Source: an uncultured Chitinophagaceae bacterium (GTDB lineage Bacteria; Bacteroidota; Bacteroidia; Chitinophagales; Chitinophagaceae). From it: 64,000 nt of DNA. This document shows positions 1 to 62,111 of the stretch, in pieces. Numbering within the stretch: position 1 is the stretch's first letter; every line of letters starts with the position of its first letter. The position numbers were made by a program, and so were the translations under genes. Under the pieces are notes generated by a model, which worked only from the letters and a program-made list of their open reading frames with translations, made no database searches and was not told the DNA's origin. Location of the stretch: the NCBI GenBank assembly GCA_903884185.1, contig CAISDV010000171.1, positions 1,729 to 65,728 on the forward strand, given 5' to 3'.

Positions 1-1174
1 TATAAAATTCATATTCCACCAACCCATAATGTACCAACAATGCACCACTATGCGCATCTACATTAGGCCATGGATTTTTGATCTTGCCAAGTGATTGCAA
101 TATTGGCGGAACAGTATCATAAATATTCCAAACAGTATTTACCAGCTTATCATCGGGCATATGTTTTTTTCCAAACTCCATCTGCGCTGTAAAACGCGGA
201 TCGGTCTTACGCAATACGGCATGGCCATATCCCGGTACCACTTTACCTGATGTCAAAGTTTTTTGAACATACTCTGCGATCTGTTCTTTGGATGGAGAAT
301 CGCTTCCCAATTCCTGCTGCATTTCAAATATCCATTTGATCACTTCCTGGTTGGCCAATCCGTGCAAAGGGCCAGCCAGCCCATTCATTCCTGCAGCATA
401 ACTTAAATATGGATCGCTTAATGCACTTCCCACCAAATGCGTGGTGTGTGCACTTACATTACCACCTTCATGATCGGCATGAATGGTCATGTACAAACGC
501 ATGAGCTCATGAAAACTTTCATCTTCATATCCCATCATATGTGCAAAATTTCCTGCCCAGTCCAGCAAACCATTGGGATGAATATGTTCTTTGTCCTTGT
601 ATTTGCGGCGATAGATATATGCAGCAATGCGCGGCAACCTGGCTATCAGGTCCATCGCATCATCATACATGGGGTTCCAGTAATCTTTTTTATTGATGCC
701 CTTTGCATATTCTTTTGCAAAATTACTTTCGGTCTGCAATGCCATCACACCCACTACAAACATCGTCATTGGATGTGCGTTCAACGGCAGCTTATCTATT
801 GTTGCAAAAACATGATTAGGAACATGGCTGCGGCGCTGCCAGGTGCTGGTAAGATGGTCTACATCCTCTTTTGTTGGCAACTCACCCAATAACATTAAAT
901 AGAACAAACCTTCCGGCAAAGGTTCTCCTCCTTCAATAGCAGCGGGTAATTTCTGTTGCAGTTCAGGAATAGAATACCCGCGAAAACGAATGCCTTCCTG
1001 TGCATCGAGTAAAGAAGTTTCTGTAACCAATCCCGTAATACCACGCATTCCCTGGTAGACCTGCGAAAGCGTTACTTCGCCTATTTTTTTGCCGCCATGT
1101 TCTTTCAGCATCTCTTTGATCTGCGTATTGGCTGCATCTGCTTTGATCTTGAATGTGTCCTTAATAATTCCCAT
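1..1174 (-). CDS. gltA: citrate synthase (partial, C-terminus beyond left edge)
   Basis: Not in ORF track because no stop lies inside the window. My translation of the minus strand from ATG at 1172-1174 gives MGIIKDTFKIKADAANTQIKEMLKEHGGKKIGEVTLSQVYQGMRGI..., later MTIHADHEGGNVSAHT and GPLHGLANQEV, the citrate synthase signatures. Confidence 0.9.
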   Translation of the reverse strand, partial: MGIIKDTFKIKADAANTQIKEMLKEHGGKKIGEVTLSQVYQGMRGITGLVTETSLLDAQEGIRFRGYSIPELQQKLPAAIEGGEPLPEGLFYLMLLGELPTKEDVDHLTSTWQRRSHVPNHVFATIDKLPLNAHPMTMFVVGVMALQTESNFAKEYAKGINKKDYWNPMYDDAMDLIARLPRIAAYIYRRKYKDKEHIHPNGLLDWAGNFAHMMGYEDESFHELMRLYMTIHADHEGGNVSAHTTHLVGSALSDPYLSYAAGMNGLAGPLHGLANQEVIKWIFEMQQELGSDSPSKEQIAEYVQKTLTSGKVVPGYGHAVLRKTDPRFTAQMEFGKKHMPDDKLVNTVWNIYDTVPPILQSLGKIKNPWPNVDAHSGALLVHYGLVEYEFY

Positions 1175-1335: not shown

Positions 1336-2436
1336 CTATTTGGGCGCTCTACGGTAGAGAGCGATCACCACAAATACAAAAATGATATTTGGTGTCCAGG
1401 CCGCTAATATCGGAGGGAAATTTCCTTTGGTGGAAAAGACGGTTGAGAATTTATCAGCCAGTATGAACAAAGCGGCAATGATCAATCCCATGGCGAGATG
1501 CAGCCCACTACCTCCCCTCACTTTTCTGCCCGCAACAATGGCGCCGATAAGTGTTAGCAGGATAACTGTGACGGGGGTGGCATCCCTCCTCCCCATCTCC
1601 ACTTTTAATTCATTCAGTCCTTCCGAACCACGCATTTCTTCGAGATTGATTTGCCTTCGGAGATCCGGGGATTCTAATTTATCTTTTGTGTATTTATCCG
1701 TTTTGAGATCTGAGGGACGAAAATTAAAATCTGTATTCTGTGACTGATAAAAAACAACTTTTTCATGCATTCCGTTGAAATCATGTTTCACCACATAATT
1801 CATTCTCCATTTTTTTGTAGCTGTATCCCAGAAAATATCACTCGCCCGCAAATTTTCGACCACCACATTATTCTTAATGCGATACATAAAAAAAGGCTGG
1901 CCTCTTTTAGAAGCAGTATCATAATTTCCAAGGCTTGCATAGGAAAATGAATCGACCTTGAGATAAATATTATTACTGCCGCCATTCATCCTATTGATGG
2001 CTTCATAAGATGAATTGGGATCAAAATATTTTGTTTCAAATGCCCCGCGTACCTGGTTTGACCTTGGAACAAGATAATGATTGGCGTACCATAGTAGCCC
2101 TGCCAGGAAAACACCACCGATCAAGTAAGGCCGTAACCAACGGTTGAAACTGGCGCCGCTGGCAAGTATGGCAATGATCTCGCTGCGCACCGCCATTTTG
2201 GAAGTAAAAAAGATCACGGCAATAAAAACAAAAAGCGGGAAGAGCAAAGCAGCCATGTAGGGCACAAAAGCAATATAATATTGCAGGATGATGTTTTTAA
2301 CACCAAGGTGCGACTTGACAAAATCATCTGCCTTCTCACTGATGTCCACCACAATTGCAATGACTGTGAATAAAAAGATGGCAAAGAAAAAAGTGAGAAT
2401 GAATTTCTTCAGTATGTACCAGTCTATTTTTTTCAT
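1336..2436 (-). CDS. LptF/LptG family permease (YjgP/YjgQ)
   Basis: 366 aa, ATG start, N-terminus MKKIDWYILKKFILTFFFAIFLF typical of the family, multiple TM segments with large periplasmic loop. Confidence 0.85.
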   Translation of the reverse strand: MKKIDWYILKKFILTFFFAIFLFTVIAIVVDISEKADDFVKSHLGVKNIILQYYIAFVPYMAALLFPLFVFIAVIFFTSKMAVRSEIIAILASGASFNRWLRPYLIGGVFLAGLLWYANHYLVPRSNQVRGAFETKYFDPNSSYEAINRMNGGSNNIYLKVDSFSYASLGNYDTASKRGQPFFMYRIKNNVVVENLRASDIFWDTATKKWRMNYVVKHDFNGMHEKVVFYQSQNTDFNFRPSDLKTDKYTKDKLESPDLRRQINLEEMRGSEGLNELKVEMGRRDATPVTVILLTLIGAIVAGRKVRGGSGLHLAMGLIIAALFILADKFSTVFSTKGNFPPILAAWTPNIIFVFVVIALYRRAPK

Positions 2437-2706: not shown

Positions 2707-2769
2707 TTTCACGCCCGTCCGAATGGCTTAGCCGGGCGGGCAAAGACGCAAAGGAGCCAAGGCGCAAAG
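2707..2769. repeat. word-hairpin arm, family d (TTCACGCAAAGACGCAAAGG type), interrupted
   Basis: tttcacg + insert + caaagacgcaaaggagccaaggcgcaaag; degenerate partner arm downstream (about 2781-2810). Confidence 0.6.
2714..2740. mobile_element. 27-nt GC-rich palindromic mini-element nested in an intergenic word-hairpin
   Basis: CCCGTCCGAATGGCTTAGCCGGGCGGG splits tttcacg|caaagacgcaaagg; the uninterrupted string tttcacgcaaagacgc occurs at 57623. Confidence 0.6.
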
Positions 2770-2850: not shown

Positions 2851-3990
2851 TTATAAACGTTGCTTTAATTGTGGTATCATGGCAGCCTTCCATGAAAGGA
2901 AAGTATCTGCCAGGATATATTTGCGGGCCTCACTTACCAGCCAGAGATAAAAAGAAAGGTTGTGTATGCTGGCTATTTGCAAGCCGAGGATCTCATCGGC
3001 AACAAATAAATGCCGCAGGTAAGCTTTGCTATAATAATTGCTTGTTTCGCAAGGGAAACCTTCATCGATCACGGAAATATCGGTTGCCCATTTTTTATTT
3101 CTTATGTTGATGATACCCTGCGAAGTGAAGAGCATTCCGTTTCTTCCATTACGCGTTGGCATCACACAATCAAACATGTCAACACCGAGGCTGATGGCTT
3201 CGAGGATATTCCACGGAGTACCCACTCCCATTAAATAACGCGGTTTATCCGCAGGCAAAATATCACAACACAATTCAGTGAACTCGTACATCATTTCTTC
3301 AGGCTCTCCCACACTCAATCCGCCAATAGCATTGCCCGCAGCGTGTTTGGAGGCAACATATTCAGAAGAAACTGTGCGAAGGTCTTTATAAATGCCGCCC
3401 TGAACAATTGGGAAAAGATTTTGCGTATGGCCATATTTGCCCTCGGTCTCATTCAGCCTTTCTATACATGCGTCCAACCAGCGATGCGTTAACTCCATGC
3501 TTTGCTTTACATATTTGTATTCGCTGGGATGAGGCGGGCATTCATCAAATGCCATAATAATATCGGCACCAATACTTCTTTGAATGTCCATCACTTTCGC
3601 CGGACTGAATAAATGCCTGCTGCCATCAATATGAGATTGAAACATCACACCTTCTTCAGCGATCTTCCTGTTGGCGGACAAAGAAAATACCTGGTAACCG
3701 CCGCTATCGGTGAGTATGGGCCTGTCCCAACCCATGAATTTATGCAGGCCACCACAGGTTTTCAGTACTTCTATACCCGGCCGCAAATAAAGATGATAGG
3801 TATTGCCAAGAATGATCTGCGCTTTTATTTCTTCCTTCAGTTGCTGTTGTGTTACAGCTTTTACGCTACCCACAGTGCCCACAGGCATAAAGATCGGGGT
3901 CAATATCTCGCCATGATCCGTGCTGATCTTGCCCGCCCTTGCTTTCGTATGGGTATTTGTTGATTCTAATTGAAAACTTAATGCTGCCAT
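2851..3990 (-). CDS. tgt: tRNA-guanine transglycosylase (queuine tRNA-ribosyltransferase)
   Basis: Track ORF 2851..4086 trimmed to ATG at 3990 (MAALSFQLESTNTHTKARAGKISTDHGEILTPIFMPVGT); motifs TDSGGYQVFSL, LFPIVQGG, GLSVGEP. The upstream extension crosses a low-complexity repeat. Confidence 0.9.
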   Translation of the reverse strand: MAALSFQLESTNTHTKARAGKISTDHGEILTPIFMPVGTVGSVKAVTQQQLKEEIKAQIILGNTYHLYLRPGIEVLKTCGGLHKFMGWDRPILTDSGGYQVFSLSANRKIAEEGVMFQSHIDGSRHLFSPAKVMDIQRSIGADIIMAFDECPPHPSEYKYVKQSMELTHRWLDACIERLNETEGKYGHTQNLFPIVQGGIYKDLRTVSSEYVASKHAAGNAIGGLSVGEPEEMMYEFTELCCDILPADKPRYLMGVGTPWNILEAISLGVDMFDCVMPTRNGRNGMLFTSQGIINIRNKKWATDISVIDEGFPCETSNYYSKAYLRHLFVADEILGLQIASIHNLSFYLWLVSEARKYILADTFLSWKAAMIPQLKQRL

Positions 3991-4061
3991 GAATAAGTAC
4001 TGATGGTAAAAGAAAGCAAATTTACATACAAGAAAGCAAAGCATGGTATGATACCGGATAT

Positions 4062-4094
4062 ACATCGTACATCCCACATCTAACATCTAACATC
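4062..4094. repeat. 7-nt periodic stutter tract (ACATCNN)
   Basis: acatcgt acatccc acatcta acatcta acatc, in the divergent tgt / GT2 promoter gap. Confidence 0.8.
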
Positions 4095-8103: not shown

Positions 8104-8140
8104 AGAGGTGCTTTTATAGGGGTCAAATATATTATTCTTT

Positions 8141-8216
8141 TCACCGCAGAGACGCAGAGACAGGGAGAAACGGGGAGATATCTCGGCGAACCTCCCCGTC
8201 TCCCCGCCTCCCCGGT
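8141..8216. repeat. word-hairpin, family a (CACCGCAGAGACGCAGAG / CTCCCCGCCTCCCC type)
   Basis: tcaccgcagagacgcagagacagggagaaacggggag ... cctccccgtctccccgcctccccggt; between the M1 peptidase start and the rsmI stop. Confidence 0.8.
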
Positions 8217-8233
8217 AAAAATTATAAAATCTC

Positions 8234-13756: not shown

Positions 13757-13814
13757 ATATAGATGACTTTACGAAACCAGCCCGACAGAGTCGGGCCGGA
13801 TATTCTTTACTTAT

Positions 13815-24713: not shown

Positions 24714-25552
24714 CTTACAGAGATTGAAATGCCCGGTACATCATAAAAACCTGTAAATGATCTCGGTGGTGTTTCATGAATCCACCTGATCTCTTTATAG
24801 TTTAAATAAGTGTAAATTTTTTCCGCATAAGCATTTCCAATTAAATGCGGGAGGTTTTTATCTCCGTTGGCCAAACCCTTTAGCGGTATCAACTCAAATG
24901 AAACAAAAACACCTCCTTCAGGAAATTCTATATTTTTAGACCTAGTAGAAAAGATATTCTTTCGTTTCAGTTGATGGCTTGGCAGAATATTATCTTCAAA
25001 CAAAAGATCTTCACCAGGTAATTGTGTCACCGGGTTTTTATCAAATAGCCTGATCCTTAGTAAGTAGGTTGCTTTCCGGGGGCTTTCGAGTTTAAATCTT
25101 ATATCATCAATATAGCCCTTAACCTTAGTTTCATTAGGGATATAAACAGCATCTTGAATATCAGGTTCCAAAATTTCCCAAAAATTTTCTTTGCCATCAT
25201 CATGCCCCAATAATATTTTTGCTGTTGTGTTCCTTCTTGATCTAACAGAGACTGCATCCAGGCTTGTATATGCTTCTTTTAATTCTACTTGCAATTGATT
25301 GGTCAGTTCAGTGATCACAATCGTTACAGGCTGGTATCCAAGTGCCGAAACCTTGATAGAATCACCGGTAATTTTCTTTATACGGAACACACCAATCGAG
25401 TCGCTATTGTCGCCTATCCTGGAATGATAATAACCAATAGCCGCGAAGGCTATTGGTTTTTGCTTAGCATCTAAAATTCTACCACTCAAGATTGCCTGAG
25501 CAATTAGAATATTAGGTAAAAAGATTAAGATGAGTATAATAAACAATTTCAT
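24707..25552 (-). CDS. secreted CarboxypepD_reg-like domain protein, paralog A
   Basis: 281 aa; signal peptide + [18 protein letters not shown]... domain; tandem paralog of 25632..26477; its stop overlaps the purC stop by 7 nt (convergent). Confidence 0.7.
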
Positions 25553-25631: not shown

Positions 25632-26477
25632 TTAATAGCTTATAGTGATTGATATATTAGGCACACCATATAAATTAGTCATGGGCGACCTTGGATAATC
25701 AACCACCCATTCAATTTCTTTATAATTCAGATACAAGTAAGGCTTTTCGGCATAAGCATTTCCAACTAAACGTGGAATGGTCTTAAAGTCATTGATAAAG
25801 CCCGTCTGTGGTAACAACTCGAATGATACAAAAACACCTTCTTCGGGATATTCAATGTTTTTTGCCCTTATCGAAAAAATATTATTTCGTTTTAGTTGGC
25901 TACTCGGCACAATATTATCCTCAAATAACAGGTCTTCACCTGGAAGCTGATTTTTGGGGTTTTTATAAAATAGTCCGATCCTTAACAAGTAATTGGTCTT
26001 CCTGGGATTTTCCAACTTGAATCCTATTTCATCAATATAGCCACTGATCTTTTTTTCATTAGGTATATAAATTCCTTTTTGAATATTATCCTCCAAATTG
26101 ACTAAAAAATTTTCCCTGCTATTAAGGTGCCCTAATAAGATAGTACCGGTTGTTTTTCTTCTCGATCTTACAGAGACTGCATCCAGGCTTGTATATGCTT
26201 CTTTTAATTCTACTTGCAATTGATTGGTTATTTCAGTGATCCCAATCGTTACAGGCTGGTATCCAAGCGCCGAAACTTTGATAGAATCACCGGCAATTTT
26301 CTTTATATGGAACACACCAATCGAGTCGCTATTGTCGCCTATCCTGGAATGATAATAACCAATAGCCGCGAAGGCTATTGGTTTTTGTTTTGCATCTACA
26401 ATTCTACCACTCAGCAATGTCTGAGCAATTAGAAAACCTGGAAAAGAAAAGAAAATCAGTGCAATAAATCTTATCAT
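25632..26477 (-). CDS. secreted CarboxypepD_reg-like domain protein, paralog B
   Basis: 281 aa, same length and architecture as paralog A. Confidence 0.7.
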   Translation of the reverse strand: MIRFIALIFFSFPGFLIAQTLLSGRIVDAKQKPIAFAAIGYYHSRIGDNSDSIGVFHIKKIAGDSIKVSALGYQPVTIGITEITNQLQVELKEAYTSLDAVSVRSRRKTTGTILLGHLNSRENFLVNLEDNIQKGIYIPNEKKISGYIDEIGFKLENPRKTNYLLRIGLFYKNPKNQLPGEDLLFEDNIVPSSQLKRNNIFSIRAKNIEYPEEGVFVSFELLPQTGFINDFKTIPRLVGNAYAEKPYLYLNYKEIEWVVDYPRSPMTNLYGVPNISITISY

Positions 26478-26960: not shown

Positions 26961-28109
26961 TTACTCTTTCGTCTCTCCCAGTTTAGGGCGCAGCCTTTTC
27001 GACTTACTGAAAATATTCTGTCCTTTATCAATTCCGCTGCGAATGGCTTTCTGTCGTTCCAATGGCATAGCTATGGTGTTTTTGCATTCAATACTGCAAC
27101 AACCATCATATTGTTTTGCACAATCTTCGCATTGAATAAAGAGTAAATGGCAGCCATGATTTTTACAGTTGGTATGAGTGTCGCACGACTTACCGCATTG
27201 GTGGCATTTAGCGATCACATCTTCTGTAATGCGTTCACCCAGCCGTTCATCAAACACAAAATTCTTCCCGATGAATTTGCTTGGAGCTTCGTTCTCTTTT
27301 ATTTCGCGGGCATAATTAATGATGCCCCCCTCGAGATGAAATACATTTTTAAATCCTTTATGCAGCATGTAGGCGCTGGCCTTTTCACAACGGATACCAC
27401 CTGTGCAGTACATGATGATATTGTTGTCCTCTTTGCCCTTCATCATATCCGCAGCCATGGGCAACTGTTCACGAAAAGTATCTGAAGGGATCTCCACTGC
27501 ATTTTCAAAATGTCCCACTTCATATTCATAATGATTGCGCATGTCTATCACCACTGTGCCGGGATCTTTCATCAGTTCATTCATCTTCAGCGCATTCACA
27601 TATTTTCCTTTTTGAAACATATTGAAGGAAGGGTCCCTGATACCATCTGCCACAATTTTATCCCGCACTTTAATTCGTAATACCCAGAAACTCTTACCCT
27701 GCCCGACTGAATCGTTCAGGCGGGCCTGCCCGACTGGATCGTTCAGGCGGGCCTGCCCGACTGGATCGTTCAGGCGGGCCTGCCCGACTGGGTCGTTCAG
27801 GCGGGCACCATCATCCACTGCAATATTCAATCGCAAACCATTCAATGGTTCAATAGAATATAAAAATGTTTTGAATGATTCAAATTGAGAAGCAGGTACA
27901 CTCACCTGTGCATTGATGCCTTCCTTTGCCACATAGATCCTTCCGTATACTTTGAGGGCATTCAAATGCAGGTATAACTGATCACGAAAAGCTTTGGGAT
28001 CCTCTACAGAAAAGTAATGATAGAAACTAAGCGTTACGCGCTGCTCATTTTCTTCCATGAGGCGTTGCTTGAGTTCTAAGTTATTGATGCGGTTGTGTAA
28101 TACTGCCAT
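26961..28109 (-). CDS. trhO: rhodanese-domain tRNA uridine(34) hydroxylase (UPF0176/YceA family) carrying a 36-aa repeat insertion
   Basis: Trimmed to ATG at 28109 ([33 protein letters not shown]); rhodanese active site [11 protein letters not shown], Cys-rich C-terminus; contains ARLNDPVGQ x4. Confidence 0.85.
27699..27806. repeat. 4 x 27-bp tandem repeat (CTGCCCGACTGGATCGTTCAGGCGGGC) in frame within trhO
   Basis: Units 27699-27725, 27726-27752, 27753-27779, 27780-27806 differ only at the two central positions (tgAAtc, tgGAtc, tgGAtc, tgGGtc). Confidence 0.95.
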
Positions 28110-28125
28110 GATCGCTGCAAAAATA

Positions 28126-30501
28126 CTAATTACCCCGCCCAGAAGCAAACAAAGGCAATGAAAACCTTACCCCGCTGATGGTAGAACCATTTGGCTGGAA
28201 TCCCTGGATAAAGTCTAACCTCACAATTTTAAAGATATTTTCAAGCGAGATAAACGCTTCATAATAATGCGAGTTCTTATCAATATATAAAGCATTGCCA
28301 CCGAAAACAAGGAACCAGTTGAGCCTTCTGAACCCGGGTATCTTGTTTGTGAGCAAACCATTCAAATGATATTCTGCATGTGCCGTGGTATAAACATTCG
28401 CGATATTACTGTATTGATAATAAGGCAACAATTGAAAACTGCTCAGGTATTGGCTGGCAAATACAGTTTGGTTACCGAGATAATGCTGGTAATCAACATT
28501 CGAAACATTTTTTGCATTTAAGAAACCACCCACTTCCAGGCGATAATTGAAACGGCCGCCTAATTTAAAGTTCAGGTCGTCCGACATACCCAAATGCCAT
28601 TTGGTAAAATCAGCATTACTTCCAAAAGGCCCGTTCAACCCTTCTGTAACAGATAGATTGAATGTGGGGTATTTTGAACGGATGCCGATCTTCCTGTCGG
28701 GGAACTCAATATATTTTCCACCCGGCCTCCAGGTAATATTTTCAGTGATGGCGAATTCTTTATTGGAAATGATGCTGTTAGCCAGTGGTACCCTGTCCTG
28801 GTATTGTGCAGATATGGAAGCAGTAAATCCATCACCCAAACTCTTTGAATAACCCAGGCGAAGAAAATTGGCTTCATAAATTTTAAGGTAATCGCGTTTG
28901 TAATAAAAAGTGTTTTCAAGTCCGCTGATAGGGTCTGCATTATTTACCTGGAACACTTTTCGTCCGCCGGCAAAATTAAAACTGCTGTTATATTTTGTAC
29001 CAAAATTATACCGTCCCGCAACAGAAGCATTCAGGTGCGTGTTACCAAAACCATAACGAAGAGTGGGTGTAATAGATAACGATTTTCTTCCCTCCCATCG
29101 TTTAAAATAAGTGCCTGAAAAATTGGTCACATAGCCTTCAATATTATTATAACTATCAAAACTGGTCAACAATGGGTTGATAGAAATATTGCTTTTATTT
29201 TTTTCTGAATTGAAATTTTGTCCAAACAAAAGGAGTTTGGGTATGGTTACTTTATTTCTGCGCCTGTCGAGCGAATCCATGTACCGCGGCGATTTCCTTA
29301 CCTGTTCCAGGCTATCTTTTTTCACATAATCCCTGGCCTCAGCAGGAAGCAGTGGTATTGGGCGAATGCTGTCCCAATAAGCCAGTGTTCTTTTATTAGA
29401 GCTGTCCAAAAATTTGATGATCGTATTCCCAAAGAATTTCTTTTCATACACAGGCTCAATATTGTACTTATCATACACCTGCACAAAATTTCCAAAGAAA
29501 TCAAAATTGAATATTTTACCTGCGGGATAAATGACCTGCTGTTTCATCACCCAAACATTTTTTAAAGGCACGTATAATTGCTCAATTGTAAGGGTATCGA
29601 GGAATTGCATTTGCTGTTCCTTCAATGCCGTGAGCTGCACACTTTGCAGGCGCCACTCATCTTCAACAATATTTATATAGCCTGTAAATAATGGTTCATA
29701 TTTTCTTCTCGGTATCACTTTAATACGGCTTACTTCCCTTCCATTCTCAAAAAATGTTCCTTCAAAATGATATTTATAATAATTGAGTGCATTATTAGAG
29801 ATGGGTGAAATAAAACCGCGCGGGTTAAGTCCCTGTCCTATTGAAATATTATTCTCATAAAAAGAAAAGATCTGCGGAACGCTGAAACCAAACCCACCGG
29901 TTTGCCCGCTTACTTTGGTGGATATCACTTCCACCTTTTTTTTATTCTTTCCGTCAACCGAGTAATTGGCCAATCCTTCAGAGAGAAAGATCATCTTGCG
30001 TTTGCTGGTATCGCCATCTTCAAAATCCACTGTTTCGCCCAAAAATCTTTTGGGATAATTGCGGAGTTGTAATTGCCCTTTCAGATACACTTCACACTGA
30101 AATTGTTTCAATTCATTCAAATGCTCTTCGCGTTTTTTTATTGCCTGGCGGATGATCTCATAAGCCGGGTCTTCGCCACCGCTTTTTACTGTTACATTTT
30201 GCAGGTTATATTGCTGTTCCTGTAATTGAAAATCAATTTGTGAATCTGTTTTGCCTACGGTAATCTTTTTTTCTTCGGTGGCGTAACCTACATGCTGGCA
30301 AACAAGGGTATGTTCGCCGGGTTCAATGGGCAAACTATATTGGCCCTTGCTGTTGGCGGTGGTGCCTCGTGCCGTTCCTTTAATTAAAACCGATGCAAAG
30401 GGAAGTGGTTTTCCTTTTCCGTCTTTGACAATACCGGTGATGGTAGCAGCCCAGATAAATTGGGGGATGATGAATAACAGGCAGGATAAAGTTCTTTTCA
30501 T
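28126..30501 (-). CDS. CarboxypepD_reg-like + DUF5686-type large outer-membrane-like protein
   Basis: 791 aa; signal peptide, [37 protein letters not shown] motif, long beta-rich C-terminal region. Confidence 0.75.
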
Positions 30502-31640: not shown

Positions 31641-33936
31641 CTGTTGTACTGTTGACATTATTTTCACAAGATTGTTATTTCACCGCGGAGACAGGGAGGC
31701 GGGGAGGTTCGCAGAGTTAAAATTCAGTAAATCAATACTCTGGTTCAAATTATATACAGTTGATGCTTCTTTACACCAGCCCCTCGATATGAGTAAAGTG
31801 GCGTACATTGAAATACTCGACAATAATAACAAACCCGTGATACAGGCCAAGATTGCTTTGAAGAATGGGGATGGCAATGGTTCCTTACCTCTCCCTGTTT
31901 CTATCGGCTCAGGAAAATATAAACTGCGCGCTTATACCAACTGGATGAAGAATTTTGGTGCAGATCATTTCTTTGAAAAAATTATTACTATCGTCAATAC
32001 ACAAAAAGCAAACGAAACTATTTCTTCTCCTAAACCGGATCAGTATGATATCCAGTTCTTCCCAGAGGGAGGTAACCTCGTAAATGGTATCCAGAGCAAA
32101 GTGGCTTTTAAAGCTACAGATCAAACCGGTAAGGGAGTTGCGTTTACAGGCTCCTTGTTAGATGAACAGGATAATGTCATCATTAAATCTTTCCAGCCTC
32201 TCAAATTTGGTATGGGTAATTTTAGTTTTACTCCAACCAGCGGGCATCATTATAAAGCCATAATAGATATCGCAGGAAAAAACAAGATCACGAAAGAATT
32301 GCCTTCTGTATATGCTGAAGGATATGTAATGAAAGTAACTACAGGTCAAAGTATCATTACTGTTACCGTTCAGACAAACATTAGTACAGCTGCCGAATTA
32401 TACCTTTTTGTCAATACTGGTCAGTCGGCTAAGTTCTCCTGGGCTGGCTTTATGCGAAATGGTATAGCGCATTTTTTGATAACAAAAGACAAACTCGGAG
32501 ATGGTATTTCACATTTTACTGTTTTTAACAGCGAACGCCAACCGGTATGTGAACGTTTATATTTTAAAGTTCCACAGGAATACTTGCAGATGTATGCATC
32601 TACTGACAATCCAGGTTATGCTCCAAGAAAAAAAGTAACATTGAACATTCTCGCTGCAACGCAAGCCGGGAAAACAAGCGAAGCAGATATGTCGATGTCT
32701 GTTTACAGATTAGACTCATTACAATCACCAGATGAAAATAATATCAGCAGTTACTTGTGGCTGAATTCAGAACTAGCCGGTACTATTGAATCGCCACAAT
32801 ATTATTTTGATAGTACCAGTATCCCTGAAGCAGCAGATAATCTAATGCTCACGCAAGGATGGAGAAGGTTTCGCTGGGAAGATGTTCTTCAGAATAAAAA
32901 ACCTTCCTTCACTTATGCTCCTGAATACAACGGGCATATCATTACCGGGAAAGTGATCGATACCCGCACAGGCTCCACCGCTGAAAATATAGAGAGTTAT
33001 CTTTCAGTTCCGGGAGTACGGACACAATTCTCACCGTCGCGCAGTGATGCATCCGGACAGGTGAAATTTGAAATGAAAGAAATGTATGGCTCATCTGAGA
33101 TCATTGTACAGACCAATTCGCGTGTCGACAGCTTGTATCGTGTAGACATTGCAAATCCGTTCTTTGAAAGCTATTCATCGCGCAAATTGCCATCGTTTCA
33201 TTTTACTTCGGATAACGCCACAAATTTTCTTACACATAGCATTGGCTCACAGGTACAGAATATTTACCTGGGCGACATGTTACAGCAATTCGGCATTCCT
33301 GCTTTAGATACCAATCCTTTGCAGGTACCTCGCGAATCAAGGTACTTACTGGACAACTATGTTCGCTTTGTTACTTTGGAAGAAGTACTACGCGAATATG
33401 TTTTGTCTGTGAATGTCCGCAAGAGAGAAGATAAATTTCATGTGTTGCTGTACGACCTTGCCAACAAAGTGTATTTTGAAAATGATGGATTGGTATTGCT
33501 GGATGGCGTGCCTGTTTTTGACCAGGACAAATTCATGAAATTCGATCCGTTAAAGATCAGGAAGGTGGAAGTGGTGGATAACAAGTATTTCCTTGGTGGT
33601 AATTATTTTGATGGAATATTAAATTGCTCAACGTACAAAGGAAACCTCGCAGATTTTGAGCTTGACCCGCATGCAACCGTGATAGACTATGATGGGTTAC
33701 AATTGCAAAGAGAATTTTATTCACCTCAATACGCCACAGAACAACAGTTAAACAGCCATCTCCCCGATTTCAGGAATGTGTTGTACTGGTCTCCGAATAT
33801 ACATACCAATACTTTGGGTAAGCAAACTACCAGTTTCTATACTTCCGATGTAAAGGGTAAATATGCAGTTGTATTGCAAGGGATTGCTGCCGATGGAAAA
33901 AGCGGGAGTAATGTGGTTACATTTAATGTGAAGTAA
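31618..33936 (+). CDS. large MG2/alpha-2-macroglobulin-like protein homolog, native 5' end apparently replaced by a repeat (possible pseudogene or neo-N-terminus)
   Basis: 772 aa; family-like sequence starts at ILWFKLYTVDASLHQPLDMSKVAYIEILD...YKLRAYTNWMKNFG; residues 20-36 are translated from a half hairpin repeat (31676-33); no signal peptide; alternative ATG at 31789. Confidence 0.55.
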   Translation: MISSINLNCCTVDIIFTRLLFHRGDREAGRFAELKFSKSILWFKLYTVDASLHQPLDMSKVAYIEILDNNNKPVIQAKIALKNGDGNGSLPLPVSIGSGKYKLRAYTNWMKNFGADHFFEKIITIVNTQKANETISSPKPDQYDIQFFPEGGNLVNGIQSKVAFKATDQTGKGVAFTGSLLDEQDNVIIKSFQPLKFGMGNFSFTPTSGHHYKAIIDIAGKNKITKELPSVYAEGYVMKVTTGQSIITVTVQTNISTAAELYLFVNTGQSAKFSWAGFMRNGIAHFLITKDKLGDGISHFTVFNSERQPVCERLYFKVPQEYLQMYASTDNPGYAPRKKVTLNILAATQAGKTSEADMSMSVYRLDSLQSPDENNISSYLWLNSELAGTIESPQYYFDSTSIPEAADNLMLTQGWRRFRWEDVLQNKKPSFTYAPEYNGHIITGKVIDTRTGSTAENIESYLSVPGVRTQFSPSRSDASGQVKFEMKEMYGSSEIIVQTNSRVDSLYRVDIANPFFESYSSRKLPSFHFTSDNATNFLTHSIGSQVQNIYLGDMLQQFGIPALDTNPLQVPRESRYLLDNYVRFVTLEEVLREYVLSVNVRKREDKFHVLLYDLANKVYFENDGLVLLDGVPVFDQDKFMKFDPLKIRKVEVVDNKYFLGGNYFDGILNCSTYKGNLADFELDPHATVIDYDGLQLQREFYSPQYATEQQLNSHLPDFRNVLYWSPNIHTNTLGKQTTSFYTSDVKGKYAVVLQGIAADGKSGSNVVTFNVK
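31676..31733. repeat. half word-hairpin, family a, inverted orientation
   Basis: tatttcaccgcggagacagggaggcggggaggttcgcagagttaaaattcagtaaatc matches the reverse complement of 39481-39540 at roughly 53 of 57 aligned positions (hand alignment). Confidence 0.8.
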
Positions 33937-33940
33937 AAAT

Positions 33941-34034
33941 TCACCGCAGAGTCGCAGAGACGGGGAGGTCCGCAGAGATAATTAACCATACTAAAGGCAC
34001 TCTGCGAAACTCCCCGCCTCCCTGTCTCCCCGGT
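33941..34034. repeat. word-hairpin, family a, complete
   Basis: tcaccgcagagtcgcagagacggggaggtccgcagag ... ctctgcgaaactccccgcctccctgtctccccggt; starts 5 nt after the stop at 33936. Confidence 0.85.
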
Positions 34035-34042
34035 AAAAAAAA

Positions 34043-34390
34043 TTAATGCTTTCGTAGATAACTCCCCGTCAGCGCCCCAAAACCCGCTACGAGTCCGCCT
34101 ACAAAAGCTGTGACCAGTATCAGGAGGACGTATGATCCACCCAGAGGGAGAATATGCGCCACTTTTTGAGAAAGAATATGTTCATTTGGATAATCCAAAA
34201 GCAAAGCCAGTATTCCCCATAATAAAAACAAAGAAAGAAACCCCGATACAAATGCTTTCCATGGCTTTTGGTGAATAGCTAAGGCTACTATCAACGCACA
34301 GAATACAAAACTCCACCAGGGCAGTGTAGTGTACAATCCGGCGGCATAACTTAATAATGCGGTGAGTATGATGGTTGTGATAAATTTCAT
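34043..34390 (-). CDS. small integral membrane protein
   Basis: 115 aa, four predicted TM helices, ATG start, 10 nt downstream of the acylase gene. Confidence 0.6.
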   Translation of the reverse strand: MKFITTIILTALLSYAAGLYTTLPWWSFVFCALIVALAIHQKPWKAFVSGFLSLFLLWGILALLLDYPNEHILSQKVAHILPLGGSYVLLILVTAFVGGLVAGFGALTGSYLRKH

Positions 34391-36857: not shown

Positions 36858-36931
36858 ACCGTTAGTTTAGAGAATTGAAAATAATGAATTTTTTATTATA
36901 CCCGCTGAAGAATTACTATGCATCAAAGGTT

Positions 36932-36994
36932 GCCACAGAAACACAGAGACACAGAGGGTTGAGCCATTCTTCTGTGTTTCTGTGCCTCTGTGGC
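36932..36994. repeat. word-hairpin, family b (GCCACAGAAACACAGAGGCACAG type)
   Basis: gccacagaaacacagagacacagaggg ... ttctgtgtttctgtgcctctgtggc. Confidence 0.85.
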
Positions 36995-37011
36995 TAAAAT
37001 GTCTTGAACAA

Positions 37012-37552: not shown

Positions 37553-38704
37553 TTATTTCAGCATCTCTGTTAATATTCCTACTTCATCATTTGTATTAAA
37601 CGCATGCAGCACAATCCTCAACCTTTCCTTTCCTTTTGGAACAGTAGGATATAAAATAGGCCGCACATCCAGGTTATTCTCCTGTAATTTTTCTGCCAGC
37701 GTTTTTACATTTTCATTTCCTGGAATGATCACCACCTGTATCGCCGTTTGAGAAGATAATTTTTCATAAGAGATATTGGCTGATTGAAATTGCTGTATTA
37801 ATCCCTGCAATTGCTTTCTCTCCGCCTGCATGGTTGGAAATAATTTGTAAGCTTCACTGATCATCGCAACCGCATGTGGGGGCAGTGAAGTAGAATACAC
37901 AAAGCTTCTTGAAAAATTAATCAGATAATCGCGTAAAGTAGCGCTACCCAATATTACAGCACCATGGCAGCCACAGGCTTTTCCAAAACTATGCATCCTT
38001 GCAAATACTTTATTCTGCAAACCAAGATGCTGTACCAGGCCTTCTCCCCTTTCACCTATCACTCCAGTAGCATGCGCTTCATCAACCACCAGATGAGCAC
38101 TGTATTTTTCACAAAGAGCAACCAGTTCGTTCAGCGGACAAAGATCACCATCCATGCTAAACACGGTTTCTGTTACTACAATTATATTTCCTTTACTATC
38201 TCTTGTATGTTGTAATCTTTTTGCAAGTGCCTCCATATCATTATGCGCAAAAGAGAACGATTCGGCAAAAGATAAACGGATTCCATCACGGATAGATGCA
38301 TGGCATAAAGCATCGTATAAAATAGTATCGCCTCTTTGTGCAATGGCTGCGATCGATCCAATATTAGCATCATAACCGGAATTGAAGATGAGCGCAGTAT
38401 CTGATTGATGGAAAGAAGCGATTTGTTTTTCAGTTTGTTCTATCAATTGATAATTACCTGCGAGTAAACGAGAGCCTGTAGAACCGGTTGCCCCCGCCCC
38501 GCTACGCAGGTCGGGCAGGAGTTGCCCCTGCCCGACTATGTCATTCAGGCGGGGGTTACTTTCCGTTAATTTATTGTCATGTACGATACCGAGATAGTCA
38601 TTTGAGCAGAAGTCGATTTTACCTTCGGGTAGTTTTAGTTGACGAAAAGAGCCCTCTTTTTTTCGTTCATCCAGCTTTTTATATAAGAAATCGTCAGCGT
38701 ACAT
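37553..38704 (-). CDS. bioF: 8-amino-7-oxononanoate synthase family PLP enzyme with repeat-derived insertion
   Basis: 383 aa; FCSNDYLG, GSTGSRLLAGN, DEAHATG, SFGKACG (PLP lysine); about 18 extra residues PRLNDIVGQG..LPDLRSGAG between the first two motifs. Confidence 0.8.
   Translation of the reverse strand: MYADDFLYKKLDERKKEGSFRQLKLPEGKIDFCSNDYLGIVHDNKLTESNPRLNDIVGQGQLLPDLRSGAGATGSTGSRLLAGNYQLIEQTEKQIASFHQSDTALIFNSGYDANIGSIAAIAQRGDTILYDALCHASIRDGIRLSFAESFSFAHNDMEALAKRLQHTRDSKGNIIVVTETVFSMDGDLCPLNELVALCEKYSAHLVVDEAHATGVIGERGEGLVQHLGLQNKVFARMHSFGKACGCHGAVILGSATLRDYLINFSRSFVYSTSLPPHAVAMISEAYKLFPTMQAERKQLQGLIQQFQSANISYEKLSSQTAIQVVIIPGNENVKTLAEKLQENNLDVRPILYPTVPKGKERLRIVLHAFNTNDEVGILTEMLK
38493..38519. 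mobile_element. 27-nt GC-rich palindromic mini-element, inverted partner, inside bioF
   Basis: CCCGCCCCGCTACGCAGGTCGGGCAGG; separated by 7 nt from the copy at 38527; GTCGGGCAGG/CCTGCCCGAC form a perfect 10-bp inverted repeat. Confidence 0.5.
38527..38553. mobile_element. 27-nt GC-rich palindromic mini-element, same subtype and reading frame as trhO units, inside bioF
   Basis: CCTGCCCGACTATGTCATTCAGGCGGG; minus-strand translation (P)RLNDIVGQ versus ARLNDPVGQ in trhO. Confidence 0.55.
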
Positions 38705-38780: not shown

Positions 38781-39389
38781 ATGGAATTATCCAATCATAC
38801 TAAGAACATCCTCGGCCTGCAACTTCCCACCGACCCACGCTGGGTAGATCTTGCCGGCATTAGCCTCGAAGCCATCCTCACTGATCATGCCTATTGCGAA
38901 CAGAAAGCAGCCACTACCTGCATTTCATTGATACAACGTTACCCTGATAAAGAGATGCTGGTGCGCGAGCTCTCACCCCTTGTTACAGAAGAATGGGGGC
39001 ATTTCCGGCTGGTATTAAATGAACTGGAGAAACGAAAACTCAAACTTGGCAAACAAAGAAAAGATGAATATGTGAACCAGTTAATTGCATTCCAGCACAA
39101 AGACGGAAGCCCGGAAGACCGTTTCTTAGATAAAATGTTGACCATGGCATTGATAGAAGCCCGTAGCTGCGAACGTTTTAAAAGGCTGAGTGAAGGATTG
39201 AATGACGAATACCTCCGCAATTTTTACCGCCGTTTTATGGAAAGTGAAGCAGGGCATTATACTCTTTTTATTGAACTGGCGGAAACCTATGTTGATAAAG
39301 AAAGAGTACGCAAGCGCTGGGCAGAGTGGTTAGAGTTTGAAGCAACAGTGATGGATAGTTCGGAGGTGAGGGGGGATAGGATACATTGA
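38781..39389 (+). CDS. miaE: tRNA-(ms2io6A)-hydroxylase
   Basis: 202 aa; DHAYCEQKAA, EEWGHF, EARSCERF, ESEAGHY di-iron ligand motifs. Confidence 0.8.
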   Translation: MELSNHTKNILGLQLPTDPRWVDLAGISLEAILTDHAYCEQKAATTCISLIQRYPDKEMLVRELSPLVTEEWGHFRLVLNELEKRKLKLGKQRKDEYVNQLIAFQHKDGSPEDRFLDKMLTMALIEARSCERFKRLSEGLNDEYLRNFYRRFMESEAGHYTLFIELAETYVDKERVRKRWAEWLEFEATVMDSSEVRGDRIH

Positions 39390-39426
39390 TTATATCTTCC
39401 TCCTTCTTTTACGTAAATGAAAAGAA

Positions 39427-39537
39427 TTACCGCAGAGTCGCAGAGACAGGGAGAAACGCAGAGAGAGCTACTGTTGCCTTAAAGGTTTACTGAATTTAGC
39501 TCTGCGAATCTCCCCGCCTCCCTGTCTCTGCGGTGAA
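39427..39537. repeat. word-hairpin, family a, complete
   Basis: ttaccgcagagtcgcagagacagggagaaacgcagagag ... ctctgcgaatctccccgcctccctgtctctgcggtgaa; between convergent miaE and the GSCFA gene. Confidence 0.85.
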
Positions 39538-39572
39538 ATAACACTTTTATAAACATACTAGTAATATTTTTT

Positions 39573-40607
39573 TCAGCAACCCTTCAATGCTCCTTCAAAA
39601 TATTTTTTTTCTTCTTTCATATCTAAAAATGCATTAACCTTTTCAAGAGCCATCGTCTTTTCAAGATAACCTGCCAGGAATTTTTTATGCTGTGAGGATT
39701 GGGAATTAAACGGCTTATGGCTTACTGCCAGGTTGATCTCGGCAATATGTTTCATCAATTCTCTTGTCTCTTCATTCATACATGCCGCTGTAAATTTCTC
39801 CCACACATATTCTGTTGCAGCATAATTGGGATGCACCAGGTCTTCTGCATAAAAACGGTAATCACGCAGATCATCAATCACTAATTCGTATGCAGGAAAA
39901 TAATACGCCCGCTCATATTTTTCAATAAGCTGGTGTACCGCCTGTATCAATACCGCTTTGCTGCGGTTGTTTTCTATTACCCCTTCGCGTAGGTGGCGTA
40001 CCGGGCTAATTGTGAATATGATTGAAATCTTGGGATTGAATCCCGCCCGGCCATGCCGTTCGGACGGGGATTGAAGATTTTGCACCATTGCATCCAAAAC
40101 ACTGAATGTTTCTTCAGCACTTAGTAATTTCTTTTCAAACCAATCTGAGGGTGCTTTGTGGTTATTGGCTGCAACCGAACCCGGTTGTACATTGGCAGCT
40201 TTAGATGTGAGTGTATAAGTCCATGAGGAACCGAGTGTGATCATCAGGTAATCGGCCTCTTTTAAATATTGATGTGTTTCAGCAATAGAATCATTTATTT
40301 TTTTGAGTGATTCTTCAACACTCATTCCCGAAAAACGGCTATGGTGTTTCCAGCTATGCCAGGATTCGTTAAGACAGAACAGATCGTTATTGCTATAAGT
40401 TTTATTATTTATGCAATCACCCACTGCTTCTGCTACACTCACGGGGTTGAATAATATTCCGTGCGAATTTTCCAGTACATTGAATTTATGCTTGCGCAGT
40501 TTTGCGCCAATGTTTTCTGTAAAGCAGGAACCGATCAACAGCATTTTATGCTTGTGGTTGATAGGCTGATGCAATTTTTTAATATCAAATTCGAAATGAA
40601 ATTTCAT
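39573..40607 (-). CDS. GSCFA domain protein with 9-aa repeat-derived insertion
   Basis: 344 aa; LLIGSCFTENIG motif, ISPVRHL motif; PSERHGRAG encoded by the 27-nt element. Confidence 0.8.
   Translation of the reverse strand: MKFHFEFDIKKLHQPINHKHKMLLIGSCFTENIGAKLRKHKFNVLENSHGILFNPVSVAEAVGDCINNKTYSNNDLFCLNESWHSWKHHSRFSGMSVEESLKKINDSIAETHQYLKEADYLMITLGSSWTYTLTSKAANVQPGSVAANNHKAPSDWFEKKLLSAEETFSVLDAMVQNLQSPSERHGRAGFNPKISIIFTISPVRHLREGVIENNRSKAVLIQAVHQLIEKYERAYYFPAYELVIDDLRDYRFYAEDLVHPNYAATEYVWEKFTAACMNEETRELMKHIAEINLAVSHKPFNSQSSQHKKFLAGYLEKTMALEKVNAFLDMKEEKKYFEGALKGC
40042..40068. mobile_element. 27-nt GC-rich palindromic mini-element inside GSCFA gene
   Basis: CCCGCCCGGCCATGCCGTTCGGACGGG; its reverse complement matches 2714-2740 at 24 of 27 positions. 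Confidence 0.6.
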
Positions 40608-45662: not shown

Positions 45663-45762
45663 CGGTTCGGACAGTTTAGGGGGACATTAAAATTCAGTGG
45701 GCAAAGGTAAAGAAATTAGGGGGAAAGGCAATGTTGATAATAAAGAGGGGCGTTTTTAAGAA

Positions 45763-45794
45763 GTTGCTGGTTACCGGTTACTGGTTGCCAGTTA
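45763..45794. repeat. stutter tract, family f (reverse orientation)
   Basis: gttgctggttaccggttactggttgccagtta, about 100 nt upstream of the glycogen-synthase-like gene. Confidence 0.8.
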
Positions 45795-47460: not shown

Positions 47461-47526
47461 CAATTTCAGCCCTATCCCTACCTGCTGCGCCGAACGAGAC
47501 TCTGGTCGAACGGAAATTACATTTAT

Positions 47527-47572
47527 AACCCGCAACCAGTAATCTGTAACTGGAAACTGGTAGCCCGCAACT
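47527..47572. repeat. stutter tract, family f variant
   Basis: aacccgcaaccagtaatctgtaactggaaactggtagcccgcaact, between higB and the divergent membrane-protein gene. Confidence 0.7.
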
Positions 47573-49143: not shown

Positions 49144-49149
49144 ATTTTT

Positions 49150-49189
49150 TTAACCACAAGGAGCGCAAAGAAGGCACAAGGACCACAAA
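49150..49189. repeat. half word-hairpin, family c (AACCACAAAGAACACAAGG type)
   Basis: ttaaccacaaggagcgcaaagaaggcacaaggaccacaaa, starts 7 nt after the rfaE2 stop. Confidence 0.7.
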
Positions 49190-49315
49190 AAATCTTTCCC
49201 TAACCTGTAAGTCTGAACAATCAGGTTAATCAGGCCAATCATATAAAATCATAGTCAAGACTTAACATTCCACACAACCTCCCTTCCTTATATTTGAAGG
49301 CAACGATCTTAGTCT

Positions 49316-52280: not shown

Positions 52281-52290
52281 AGTGTTGTTT

Positions 52291-52377
52291 TTAACCACAA
52301 TGGCCACAAAGGATGCACAAAGAACACAAGCGGTCTTTGTGCCCATTGTGACTTCCTTGTGTTCTTTGTGGTTAAAT
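52291..52377. repeat. word-hairpin, family c, complete
   Basis: tttaaccacaatggccacaaaggatgcacaaagaacacaagcgg ... tctttgtgcccattgtgacttccttgtgttctttgtggttaaa; 11 nt after the ppx stop. Confidence 0.85.
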
Positions 52378-52588
52378 AAAACTCATTTGCAACTGTCTGT
52401 AATTAGTATTATTTTGTCCGGTGAATTCAGGCACATGAGTTCTCCCTAACCGGTTGTGAAGTGAATAAATGCCCTGGCATACGTACGGTGTTCACCGATT
52501 AATGAACTTTATTCACCCATATTCTCCGTTAAAGGCTTGTGTACCTGGTTAGTTTTGATTTAATAACCCTCCATAAAAATTAAACTGT

Positions 52589-57161: not shown

Positions 57162-57167
57162 ATTATT

Positions 57168-57241
57168 GCCACAGAAACACAGAGGCACAGAAGAGAGAAG
57201 GAATGATTGAACTATTTTCTGTGTTTCTGTGCCTCTGTGGC
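57168..57241. repeat. word-hairpin, family b
   Basis: gccacagaaacacagaggcacagaag ... ttctgtgtttctgtgcctctgtggc; starts 7 nt after the ALDH stop. Confidence 0.85.
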
Positions 57242-57291
57242 AGCCTTTTAAAATTGCAAAAAACATTTTATAATTAATAAAAAATACAAAT

Positions 57292-61493: not shown

Positions 61494-61501
61494 TACGTAT
61501 T

Positions 61502-61527
61502 GCCACAGAGGCACAGAAACACAGAGG
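61502..61527. repeat. family b arm, left half of split hairpin
   Basis: gccacagaggcacagaaacacagagg, perfect reverse complement of 62080-62105. Confidence 0.9.
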
Positions 61528-61548
61528 ACATCATTTCGTTTCCAAATA

Positions 61549-62067: not shown

Positions 62068-62079
62068 CTGTTTACAATC

Positions 62080-62105
62080 CCTCTGTGTTTCTGTGCCTCT
62101 GTGGC
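62080..62105. repeat. family b arm, right half of split hairpin
   Basis: cctctgtgtttctgtgcctctgtggc; identical to the right arms at 36970-94 and 57217-41. Confidence 0.9.
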
Positions 62106-62111
62106 TAAAAA

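Follow-up and report, generated by a model that had tools for sequence, protein, structure and literature searches.

The bioF gene (8-amino-7-oxononanoate synthase) of an uncultured Chitinophagaceae bacterium carries two copies of a 27-nt GC-rich imperfect palindrome in opposite orientations, which together form a 61-nt hairpin within the coding sequence. The gene lies in a window of 64,000 nt, by which we mean the whole stretch of DNA that was analysed. It is very probable that the hairpin arose through two independent seamless insertions of this repeat at adjacent GGCAAC(C/T) heptamers; since the elements elsewhere are almost always single, the hairpin itself would have come about incidentally, through a heptamer hot spot being hit twice.

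The plus strand of the hairpin reads CCCGCCCCGCTACGCAGGTCGGGCAGG (38493-38519), agttgcc (38520-38526) and CCTGCCCGACTATGTCATTCAGGCGGG (38527-38553), the arms being complementary over 10 bp at their inner ends and over 6 bp at their outer ends. Translation of bioF runs across it as ...TESNPRLNDIVGQGQLLPDLRSGAGATGSTGSRLLAGN (over a longer stretch, ...TESNPRLNDIVGQGQLLPDLRSGAGATGSTGSRLL). A preliminary description of this DNA had given the sequence, coordinates, complementary ends and translation exactly so. The GC content of the hairpin stretch is 0.68-0.70 vs 0.41 across the window. When the mRNA was folded, as the same description had proposed, a 91-nt bioF segment reached -48.5 kcal/mol (z = -4.86) and 0 of 200 shuffles were as stable; as DNA, the 61-nt hairpin gave -18 kcal/mol (z = -3.45). 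The 10-bp inverted repeat by itself is not significant within 64 kb, so the weight of the observation comes from the membership of the units in a repeat family and from exact 27-nt indels relative to orthologues, not from the 10-bp repeat alone.

The BioF protein of the window matches the TIGR00858 profile with E = 3e-108, and its nearest named homologues are from Chitinophagaceae. In a set of 120 homologues the modal length was about 362 aa, and the window protein had 18 additional residues between the NDYLGI and GSTGSRL motifs, where an excess of about 14-18 had been anticipated. The insert was missing from 118 of 119 homologues, and the remaining one had a single unit. Empty orthologues are thus present, and the possibility raised beforehand that the segment is common to all of them fell away. 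In an AlphaFold2 model (mean predicted local distance difference test score, pLDDT, 85.9; predicted TM-score, pTM, 0.86), residues 56-78, insert included, had pLDDT values below 50. This fits a flexible loop. The preliminary description had asked whether the loop is surface exposed: a low-confidence loop was found, and exposure is not a property that pLDDT measures.

Three relatives of the window BioF, P0026 (locus L212), P0028 (locus L122) and P0066, are without a unit, whereas P0002 (locus L121) has one, read PRLNDSVGQ, at the same nucleotide bond as the window. Alignment of the DNA of the window, L121 and L122 gave a clean 27-nt indel at AACC|GGCAAC, and the right unit of the window is an exact 27-nt insertion relative to both L122 and L212. 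The left unit was also inserted as exactly 27 nt, one heptamer unit from the right one, and the empty site in L212 reads AACC GGCAACT GGCAACC; the recurrent bond in bioF can be written AACY|GGCAAC. Each unit amounts to 9 codons, has no stop in the frame used and is read through. Deletion of both 27-mers in silico shortened the 383-aa protein to 365 aa with the frame restored. The excised DNA, AACC|GGCAACT|GGCAACCGGTTC, is identical to L212, and the excised peptide, NRQLATGSTGSRLL, is the same as in P0026 and P0080. No base is duplicated at either junction and the boundaries cannot be shifted. Because excision restores the sequence of the relatives, the apparent spacer is host DNA and the two units represent two independent events in opposite orientations, as had been suggested, and not a doublet. 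P0002 shares about 90 % identity with P0026, P0028 and P0066, all of them empty, but only about 70 % with the window BioF. Since the nearest members of its clade lack the unit, either two lineages acquired an insertion at this bond independently or the element was lost precisely several times.

The right unit differs from the family consensus by 2 substitutions and is 86 % identical to the reference unit of the trhO family, so the kinship with trhO that had been suspected holds. The left unit keeps the ends of the family (CCTGCCCGAC...GGCGGG; 10 + 6-7 nt), while its centre has diverged; ungapped identity between the left and the right unit is 17/27.

We also noticed that the NDYLGI-GSTGSRL segment (window 38470-38570) is a coding heptanucleotide run, (GGCAACC)n, read GNRQPAT, and that it is hypervariable among Chitinophagaceae BioF proteins (P0003, P0027, P0032, P0045, P0075, P0095, P0096 and P0118 were considered). 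Other repeat-like inserts occur there, e.g. TTNHKPASPPNHKPQTT and long VIGH...SLQ... stretches, and the segment seems to act quite generally as a hot spot where lengths change in frame. Heptamer repeats of the GGTTACC/GGTTGCC kind, resembling this run, are also present in the window at 45762-45794 and 47526-47558.

The hairpin units are members of a family whose arm is over-represented in the window. With one mismatch at most, GTCGGGCAGG occurred 8 times vs 1.6 expected, and no shuffle reached 8. The window contains 8 units of the family: five of type A (four in trhO, one in bioF), the diverged bioF unit and two of a sister type B, which read CCCGCCCGGCnnnGCC[A/G]TTCGGACGGG; outside bioF the exact GTCGGGCAGG arm was present only in the four trhO units. 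Compared with the Pfam UPF0176_N profile and PDB 9j5o, the trhO array adds about 36-37 residues. Its neighbouring units are the most alike, so it is more likely that the array grew by local tandem duplication. A search with the array peptide matched one other protein, P0241. The B type found in the GSCFA-family gene at 40042-40068 is also present in loci L009, L035 and L042. No GSCFA or TrhO homologues for a comparison of insertion sites were among the fetched loci, and Rfam gave no match at gathering score anywhere in the window.

The GSCFA unit is flanked by a 7-nt direct repeat, GATTGAA (40034-40040 and 40069-40075), the left side having an additional T. If this repeat were a target duplication, the insertion would measure about 35 nt, which conflicts with the intact GSCFA frame.

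To survey the family, the pattern CCTGCCCGACN7TTCAGGCGGG was scanned over the species-genome collection, which returned at least 120 stretches; at least 120 public loci match it, vs about 0.1-1 expected by chance. The counts of 120 loci and of 126 or 129 copies given below refer to the matches listed. The 129 distinct copies gave the A-type consensus CCTGCCCGACTnnGTCATTCAGGCGGG. Their flanks were essentially random and the 27-nt edges sharp, and 5 of the 7 positions left unspecified in the pattern were conserved as well. The B-type consensus is CCCGCCCGGCnnnGCCGTTCGGACGGG. As we read the two consensus sequences, A and B would share an outer stem of 6 bp that contains a single mismatch, an inner stem of 3-4 bp whose A-T pair in type A is replaced by G-C in type B, a variable loop of 3 nt and, on the 3' side, a bulged TTC(A/G). 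Single 27-nt units folded at -4.2 to -8.7 kcal/mol as DNA.

Going by the labels of the records, the carriers in Bacteroidota are Chitinophagaceae, Saprospiraceae, Rikenellaceae and Flavobacteriia, and they include the cultured Chitinophagaceae Terrimonas pollutisoli H1YJ31, Pinibacter aurantiacus MAH-26 and strain 26-R-25 and the cultured flavobacterium Arenibacter certesii DSM 19833. At least five assemblies of anammox Planctomycetota carry the element, as do Ignavibacteria, Neomarinimicrobiota (Marinimicrobia), three lineages of the candidate phyla radiation (CPR) and one archaeon, again as labelled. Many of the host genomes are AT-rich. Beyond what the preliminary description had proposed, the element would thus not be local to the source genome, and the family, as labelled, is spread across phyla.

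Copies elsewhere are mostly solitary: an inverted partner within 60 nt was found for 1 of 126 copies and a direct partner within the same distance for 2 of 126. Near or inside other GC-rich palindromes lay 16 % of the copies vs 5 % in the control, and 5 % vs 1 % were at the centres of flanking inverted repeats. Insertion at palindrome centres only was rejected, as it holds for this minority. Clear nesting of an A type inside a B-like unit was seen in L045, L077, L078, L086 and L099. In addition, a recurrent composite with the 27-mer between conserved arms occurs in L005, L014, L064, L069 and L117, in L042 and L046, and in L098, L103 and L112; one arm example is ...TTCGACTA | 27-mer | CGCTCAG..., and the Scalindua composite reads ...CTG | 27-mer | CA(A/G)G..TGAACCAGC. 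Such composites are either other palindromic repeats whose loops have taken up an insertion or composite elements of larger size. Among 2.9 million viral contigs there were 3 matches, and no copy was found in catalogued plasmids and phages; carriage by viruses or plasmids was therefore rejected.

Outside the window, 45 of the 126 copies, about 35-40 %, lie in stop-free open reading frames (ORFs) of at least 150 codons. The preliminary description had noted that the RLNDxVGQ frame was reused in two unrelated proteins and ascribed this to selection on frame or a preferred insertion phase. The bias proved to be general: 28 of the 45 copies (62 %) encode the hydrophilic peptide (A/P)RLNDxVGQ, more than four open frames used equally would give (p = 1.6e-8) and also more than the orientation bias between genes predicts (p = 8.5e-4). 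As it goes beyond orientation bias, the encoded peptide or the insertion phase matters. Host genes in CPR-labelled contigs include those for arginyl-tRNA synthetase (ArgRS), TsaD and the DNA polymerase III alpha subunit (DnaE), and a fucosidase and a GH43 enzyme were further hosts. Judging from the intact ORFs, the copies in bioF, trhO, GSCFA, ArgRS, TsaD, DnaE and others would be translated through.

At none of the five reconstructed sites (two in bioF, one in L121 and two in the L180 gene discussed below) was there a target duplication. The A strand is antisense to host genes in 31:14 cases and to flanking co-directional genes in 24:13 (pooled, 55:27, about 2:1; p = 0.003), and it is on the C-rich strand in 69:39 (p = 0.005); gene orientation confounds a reading of these biases in terms of the replication strand. 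Preferences in the flanks were weak, with T at -2 and C or G at +28, and [C/G]AT about 5-fold enriched at +28..30. Mutual information between the variable loop and the flanks was also weak (at most 0.14 bit), with more nominally significant pairs than expected.

Transposases of the type associated with repetitive extragenic palindromes (REPs), the REP-associated tyrosine transposases (RAYTs), were sought as the mover. RAYT-like ORFs are present in 4 of the 120 element loci (L014, L042, L071 and L084), which by a rough estimate exceeds chance expectation, and two of them pass the NCBIfam NF047646 cut-off. A-type 27-mers lie inside RAYT genes in L180 (1981-2007 and 2248-2274) and in L071 (21-47). 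They split Trp codons (TG|G), each bringing an in-frame TGA; L180 and L071 share the Trp codon hit although their RAYTs are clearly diverged, and the second L180 copy is in another Trp codon. Removal of the 27-mers restores an intact RAYT of 185 aa, and the 120 listed full-length homologues are mostly of 183-185 aa. No peptides derived from the element were found in 120 homologous RAYT proteins. The L180 RAYT is flanked by its own, different hairpin, GCGCAGGTCTCCTGACCTGTG. B-type units occur about 100 nt upstream and about 700 nt downstream of the L042 RAYT, a single case. In the RAYT loci sampled (80 from metagenomes and 6 from assemblies) no association with the element was found, and the RAYT was rejected as the mover, since RAYTs near the element have their own, different flanking repeats and the L180 copies interrupt the gene. 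For RAYT genes of subclass 2.4, REPs inserted in frame have already been described (PMC6006769), and this aspect is accordingly not new.

In the L071 RAYT, at about 430-460, a different 20-nt palindrome, CCTGCCTACCGGCAGGCAGG, lies inside the catalytic Tyr codon (TA|T) and shifts the frame, and a third small palindrome is found further upstream; with several palindromes in it, this gene has been hit repeatedly by palindromic insertions. In L014 (1480-1790), three canonical GTAG-tagged REPs (GTAGGTCGGACATTCCTGTCCGAC) stand directly downstream of the RAYT-like gene, and an A-type 27-mer, nested in another palindrome, is about 380 nt from it.

Four other explanations of the bioF hairpin were weighed against two independent insertions. 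In the first, only the right unit would be a true insertion, part of which a local inverted duplication or template switch later copied to make the left arm. The perfect 10-bp inverted repeat of the inner arms and the left-unit centre that matches no other family member found are in its favour; we nevertheless consider it quite improbable, as the left unit is exactly 27 nt long, occupies the corresponding place in the next heptamer (AACT|GGCAAC vs AACC|GGCAAC) and has the outer end GGCGGG, which copying of the inner arm alone would not explain. Less probable still is the single insertion of a doublet of the REPIN kind, i.e. two inverted REPs with a short spacer, moved by a RAYT. The bioF pair does look like inverted units that form a larger hairpin, and some element loci do have RAYT-like genes, but the spacer is a host heptamer, separate excision of the 27-mers restores the sequence of the relatives, one relative has a single unit at the same bond, just 1 of the 126 copies elsewhere has a close inverted partner, and the centres of the two bioF units differ strongly.

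The hairpin might also be a native feature under selection, either as a functional surface loop or, at the mRNA level, as a hairpin by which translation of this biotin gene is adjusted, and its high stability (-48.5 kcal/mol), the intact ORF and the preserved frame would agree with this. We find such an origin hardly credible for a segment that is missing in 118 of 119 homologues, with a single unit in the exception, whose 27-mer recurs in unrelated genes and outside long ORFs of many genomes, and which has a foreign GC content and low model confidence. Neither the mRNA hairpin nor the additional loop is likely to be a regulatory device; both are probably passengers, neutral or at a slight cost, although later co-option may have occurred. 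The least probable of the four is an over-represented recognition word of the DNA uptake sequence type, spread by biased uptake or conversion. Uptake sequences occur in and between genes, often as inverted pairs and in biased reading frames, and the core GCCTGAA presumably recalls the Neisseria uptake sequence GCCGTCTGAA. The copies are clean 27-nt indels relative to orthologues, however, and not substitutions; the same word is found in phyla with no shared uptake system, and tandem and nested copies exist.

Several points weigh against the insertion of a widespread mobile repeat. None of the fetched loci contains a sister copy of the left bioF unit with its diverged centre, so the assignment of this unit to the family rests on its ends, length and site. 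Mobility is inferred from comparison of sequences, in which presence and absence may partly reflect precise loss. The taxon labels come from records that include metagenome bins and may include binning errors, copies from related genomes do not count as fully independent observations, and an ORF of at least 150 codons is a proxy for a gene. In the flanks of the 129 copies there is no conserved target, and no guide tetranucleotide of the kind that IS200/IS605 and canonical REPs have. Among the RAYT loci sampled (80 from metagenomes and 6 from assemblies, L203-L208) no mobilising enzyme was found: of the 80, only L180 carries the element, which interrupts the gene, and the 6 contain neither the 27-mer nor any similar palindrome.

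The repeat would be a non-autonomous selfish element that travels as a hairpin of single-stranded DNA, with a sequence-specific enzyme acting in trans and leaving no duplication. The leading candidate for this enzyme, put forward tentatively, is one of the HUH/Y1 type (IS200- or RAYT-like). Selection would then remove copies that break genes, so that stop-free copies whose length is a multiple of three would remain in tolerant loops. A bolder and rather doubtful proposal sees in the 27-mer, a 9-codon palindrome of almost unchanging base sequence across bacterial phyla, the smallest mobile element known to invade proteins. It would be moved by an unrecognised, horizontally spreading machinery for single-stranded DNA insertion that targets particular local DNA structures, and its sequence would have been moulded to yield a harmless loop peptide in the usual reading. 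Such targeting would explain why the same bond is hit repeatedly in diverged orthologues, and such a sequence could colonise even essential genes (DnaE, ArgRS, TsaD), continually adding small loops.

The element resembles REP-like or Rickettsia-palindromic-element-like selfish palindromes and fails the defining features of both. REP/REPIN and RAYT systems of Enterobacteria and Pseudomonas are reviewed in PMC3733652 and PMC6006769, which also report REPs inside genes. At 27 nt the element is, like a REP (20-40 nt), a short GC-rich imperfect palindrome in many copies, inserted without target duplication and plausibly recognised as a single-strand hairpin. Unlike REPs, the 129 copies have no GT[AG]G or CGTC tag at their ends or flanks (CGTC occurs in the variable loop by chance only), about 35-40 % of copies are in long ORFs and not mainly extragenic, and no cognate RAYT flanked by the same repeats (a REPtron) was found among the RAYT loci sampled. 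The copies are singletons, in contrast to REPIN doublets. A near-identical 27-mer is present in many phyla, as labelled, whereas REP families are lineage-specific and vertically inherited.

Rickettsia palindromic elements (RPEs) were reportedly described by Ogata et al. in 2000. They measure about 100-150 bp, are not known outside Rickettsia, belong to unrelated sequence families and are apparently tolerated in surface regions. The 27-mer shares with them that it is a palindromic selfish repeat, found in frame in protein-coding genes including housekeeping ones, read through, and with no known transposase. It differs, by this description, in being about one fifth of the size and in occurring mostly in Bacteroidota and in other phyla. 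RPEs are mentioned in PMC3733652.

Elements of the IS200/IS605 family and their miniature derivatives, the palindrome-associated transposable elements (PATEs), are treated in PMC3119063 and PMC6006769. Seamless insertion without duplication, as at the bioF, L121 and L180 sites, is common to them and the 27-mer, which may further be likened to them in seamless excision and recognition of single-stranded DNA hairpins. IS200/IS605 elements also have a strand (replication) bias; for the 27-mer, the A-strand biases are confounded by gene orientation in this respect. IS200/IS605 elements carry a pair of dissimilar subterminal hairpins and have a fixed target of four or five nucleotides, 3' of which they insert, unlike the single 27-nt hairpin without a fixed flank seen here. 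[quoted passage not shown] A CRISPR array is different in that the trhO units abut without spacers and copies elsewhere are single. GC clusters of mitochondria, too, are small GC-rich palindromes in AT-rich genomes, sometimes in frame, often nested and of no known mechanism. Yeast var1 is an example. They are organellar, however, with unrelated sequences and variable lengths; these hairpin repeats are covered in PMC2800124 and PMC7218506. The literature on REPs, RAYTs, RPEs and GC-rich palindromes gave general background only, and the two 10-mers of the element were not found together in any paper of the literature searched.

In-frame colonisation of genes by selfish palindromes has so far been largely a curiosity of Rickettsia, with scattered cases of REPs. 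Here a far smaller element does the same, with sharp ends, at the same phosphodiester bond in diverged orthologues and nearly constant across the labelled phyla. If true, this points to an unrecognised and widely shared insertion mechanism and to a continual supply of 9-residue loops inserted into bacterial proteins, essential ones included. The element accounts for odd GC-rich islands and for length outliers among annotated proteins. Filled and empty sites would be a clean marker for strain typing, the defined 27-nt sequence a substrate for finding the enzyme, and the bioF site a natural test of insertion tolerance in an enzyme loop. The features of the window are collected in Table 1; the divergent arrangement of bioF and its MiaE-like neighbour is common to the orthologous loci L122 and L212. 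The palindrome at 13777..13799 is of uncertain kinship to the family and could simply be the stem of a terminator.

Table 1. Units of the 27-nt family and related features in the window
Feature	Position	Strand	Remarks
bioF (8-amino-7-oxononanoate synthase)	37553..38704	-	383 aa, intact ORF; PF00155, TIGR00858
Left bioF unit, inverted 27-nt element, - strand CCTGCCCGACCTGCGTAGCGGGGCGGG	38493..38519	-	read LPDLRSGAG
Apparent spacer GGCAACT	38520..38526	-	one coding GGCAAC(C/T) heptamer unit, codons R-Q-L; host DNA, outside the elements
Right bioF unit, 27-nt palindromic element, A type, CCTGCCCGACTATGTCATTCAGGCGGG	38527..38553	+ (antisense to bioF)	read (P)RLNDIVGQ
MiaE-like gene	38781-39389		divergent neighbour of bioF
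Four head-to-tail A-type 27-mers in trhO (ORF 26961..28148, -)	27698..27805	+	ARLNDPVGQ three times and ARLNDSVGQ
B-type 27-mer CCCGCCCGGCCATGCCGTTCGGACGGG in GSCFA-family gene (39573..40607, -)	40042..40068	+	read PSERHGRAG
B-type 27-mer, - strand CCCGCCCGGCTAAGCCATTCGGACGGG	2714..2740	-	outside all listed ORFs of at least 80 aa, between 1336..2436 (-) and 2851..4086 (-)
23-nt perfect palindrome CCAGCCCGACAGAGTCGGGCCGG	13777..13799	.	between convergent ORFs; has GCCCGAC/GTCGGGC core

Other repeats were noticed in the window. A second family consists of GC-rich inverted pairs (CACCGCAGAGACGCAGAGACAGGGAGA... / ...TCTCCCCGCCTCCCCGGTGAAA) at 8129-8230, 31659-31721, 33931-34046 and 39421-39557, one member lying directly between the MiaE-like gene and the GSCFA gene beside bioF. 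Two more inverted-repeat families, GCCACAGAAACACAGAGGCACAGA... and AACCACAAGGAGCGCAAAGAAGGCACAAGG..., are found at 36928-36999, 57164-57246, 61498-61528 and 62077-62110, and also at 49145-49197 and 52284-52382. A 300-nt direct repeat (24789-25088 and 25714-26013) has 73 % identity between its copies, which are 925 nt apart, and each copy is followed by an identical 33-nt hairpin, AATAACCAATAGCCGCGAAGGCTATTGGTTTTT (25429-25461 and 26354-26386); it is probably a tandem gene duplicate with its terminator. Finally, the ORF at 12989-13756 contains 48-nt coding repeats that give a periodic protein rich in lysine and glutamate, with the motif KVD.EKIK.

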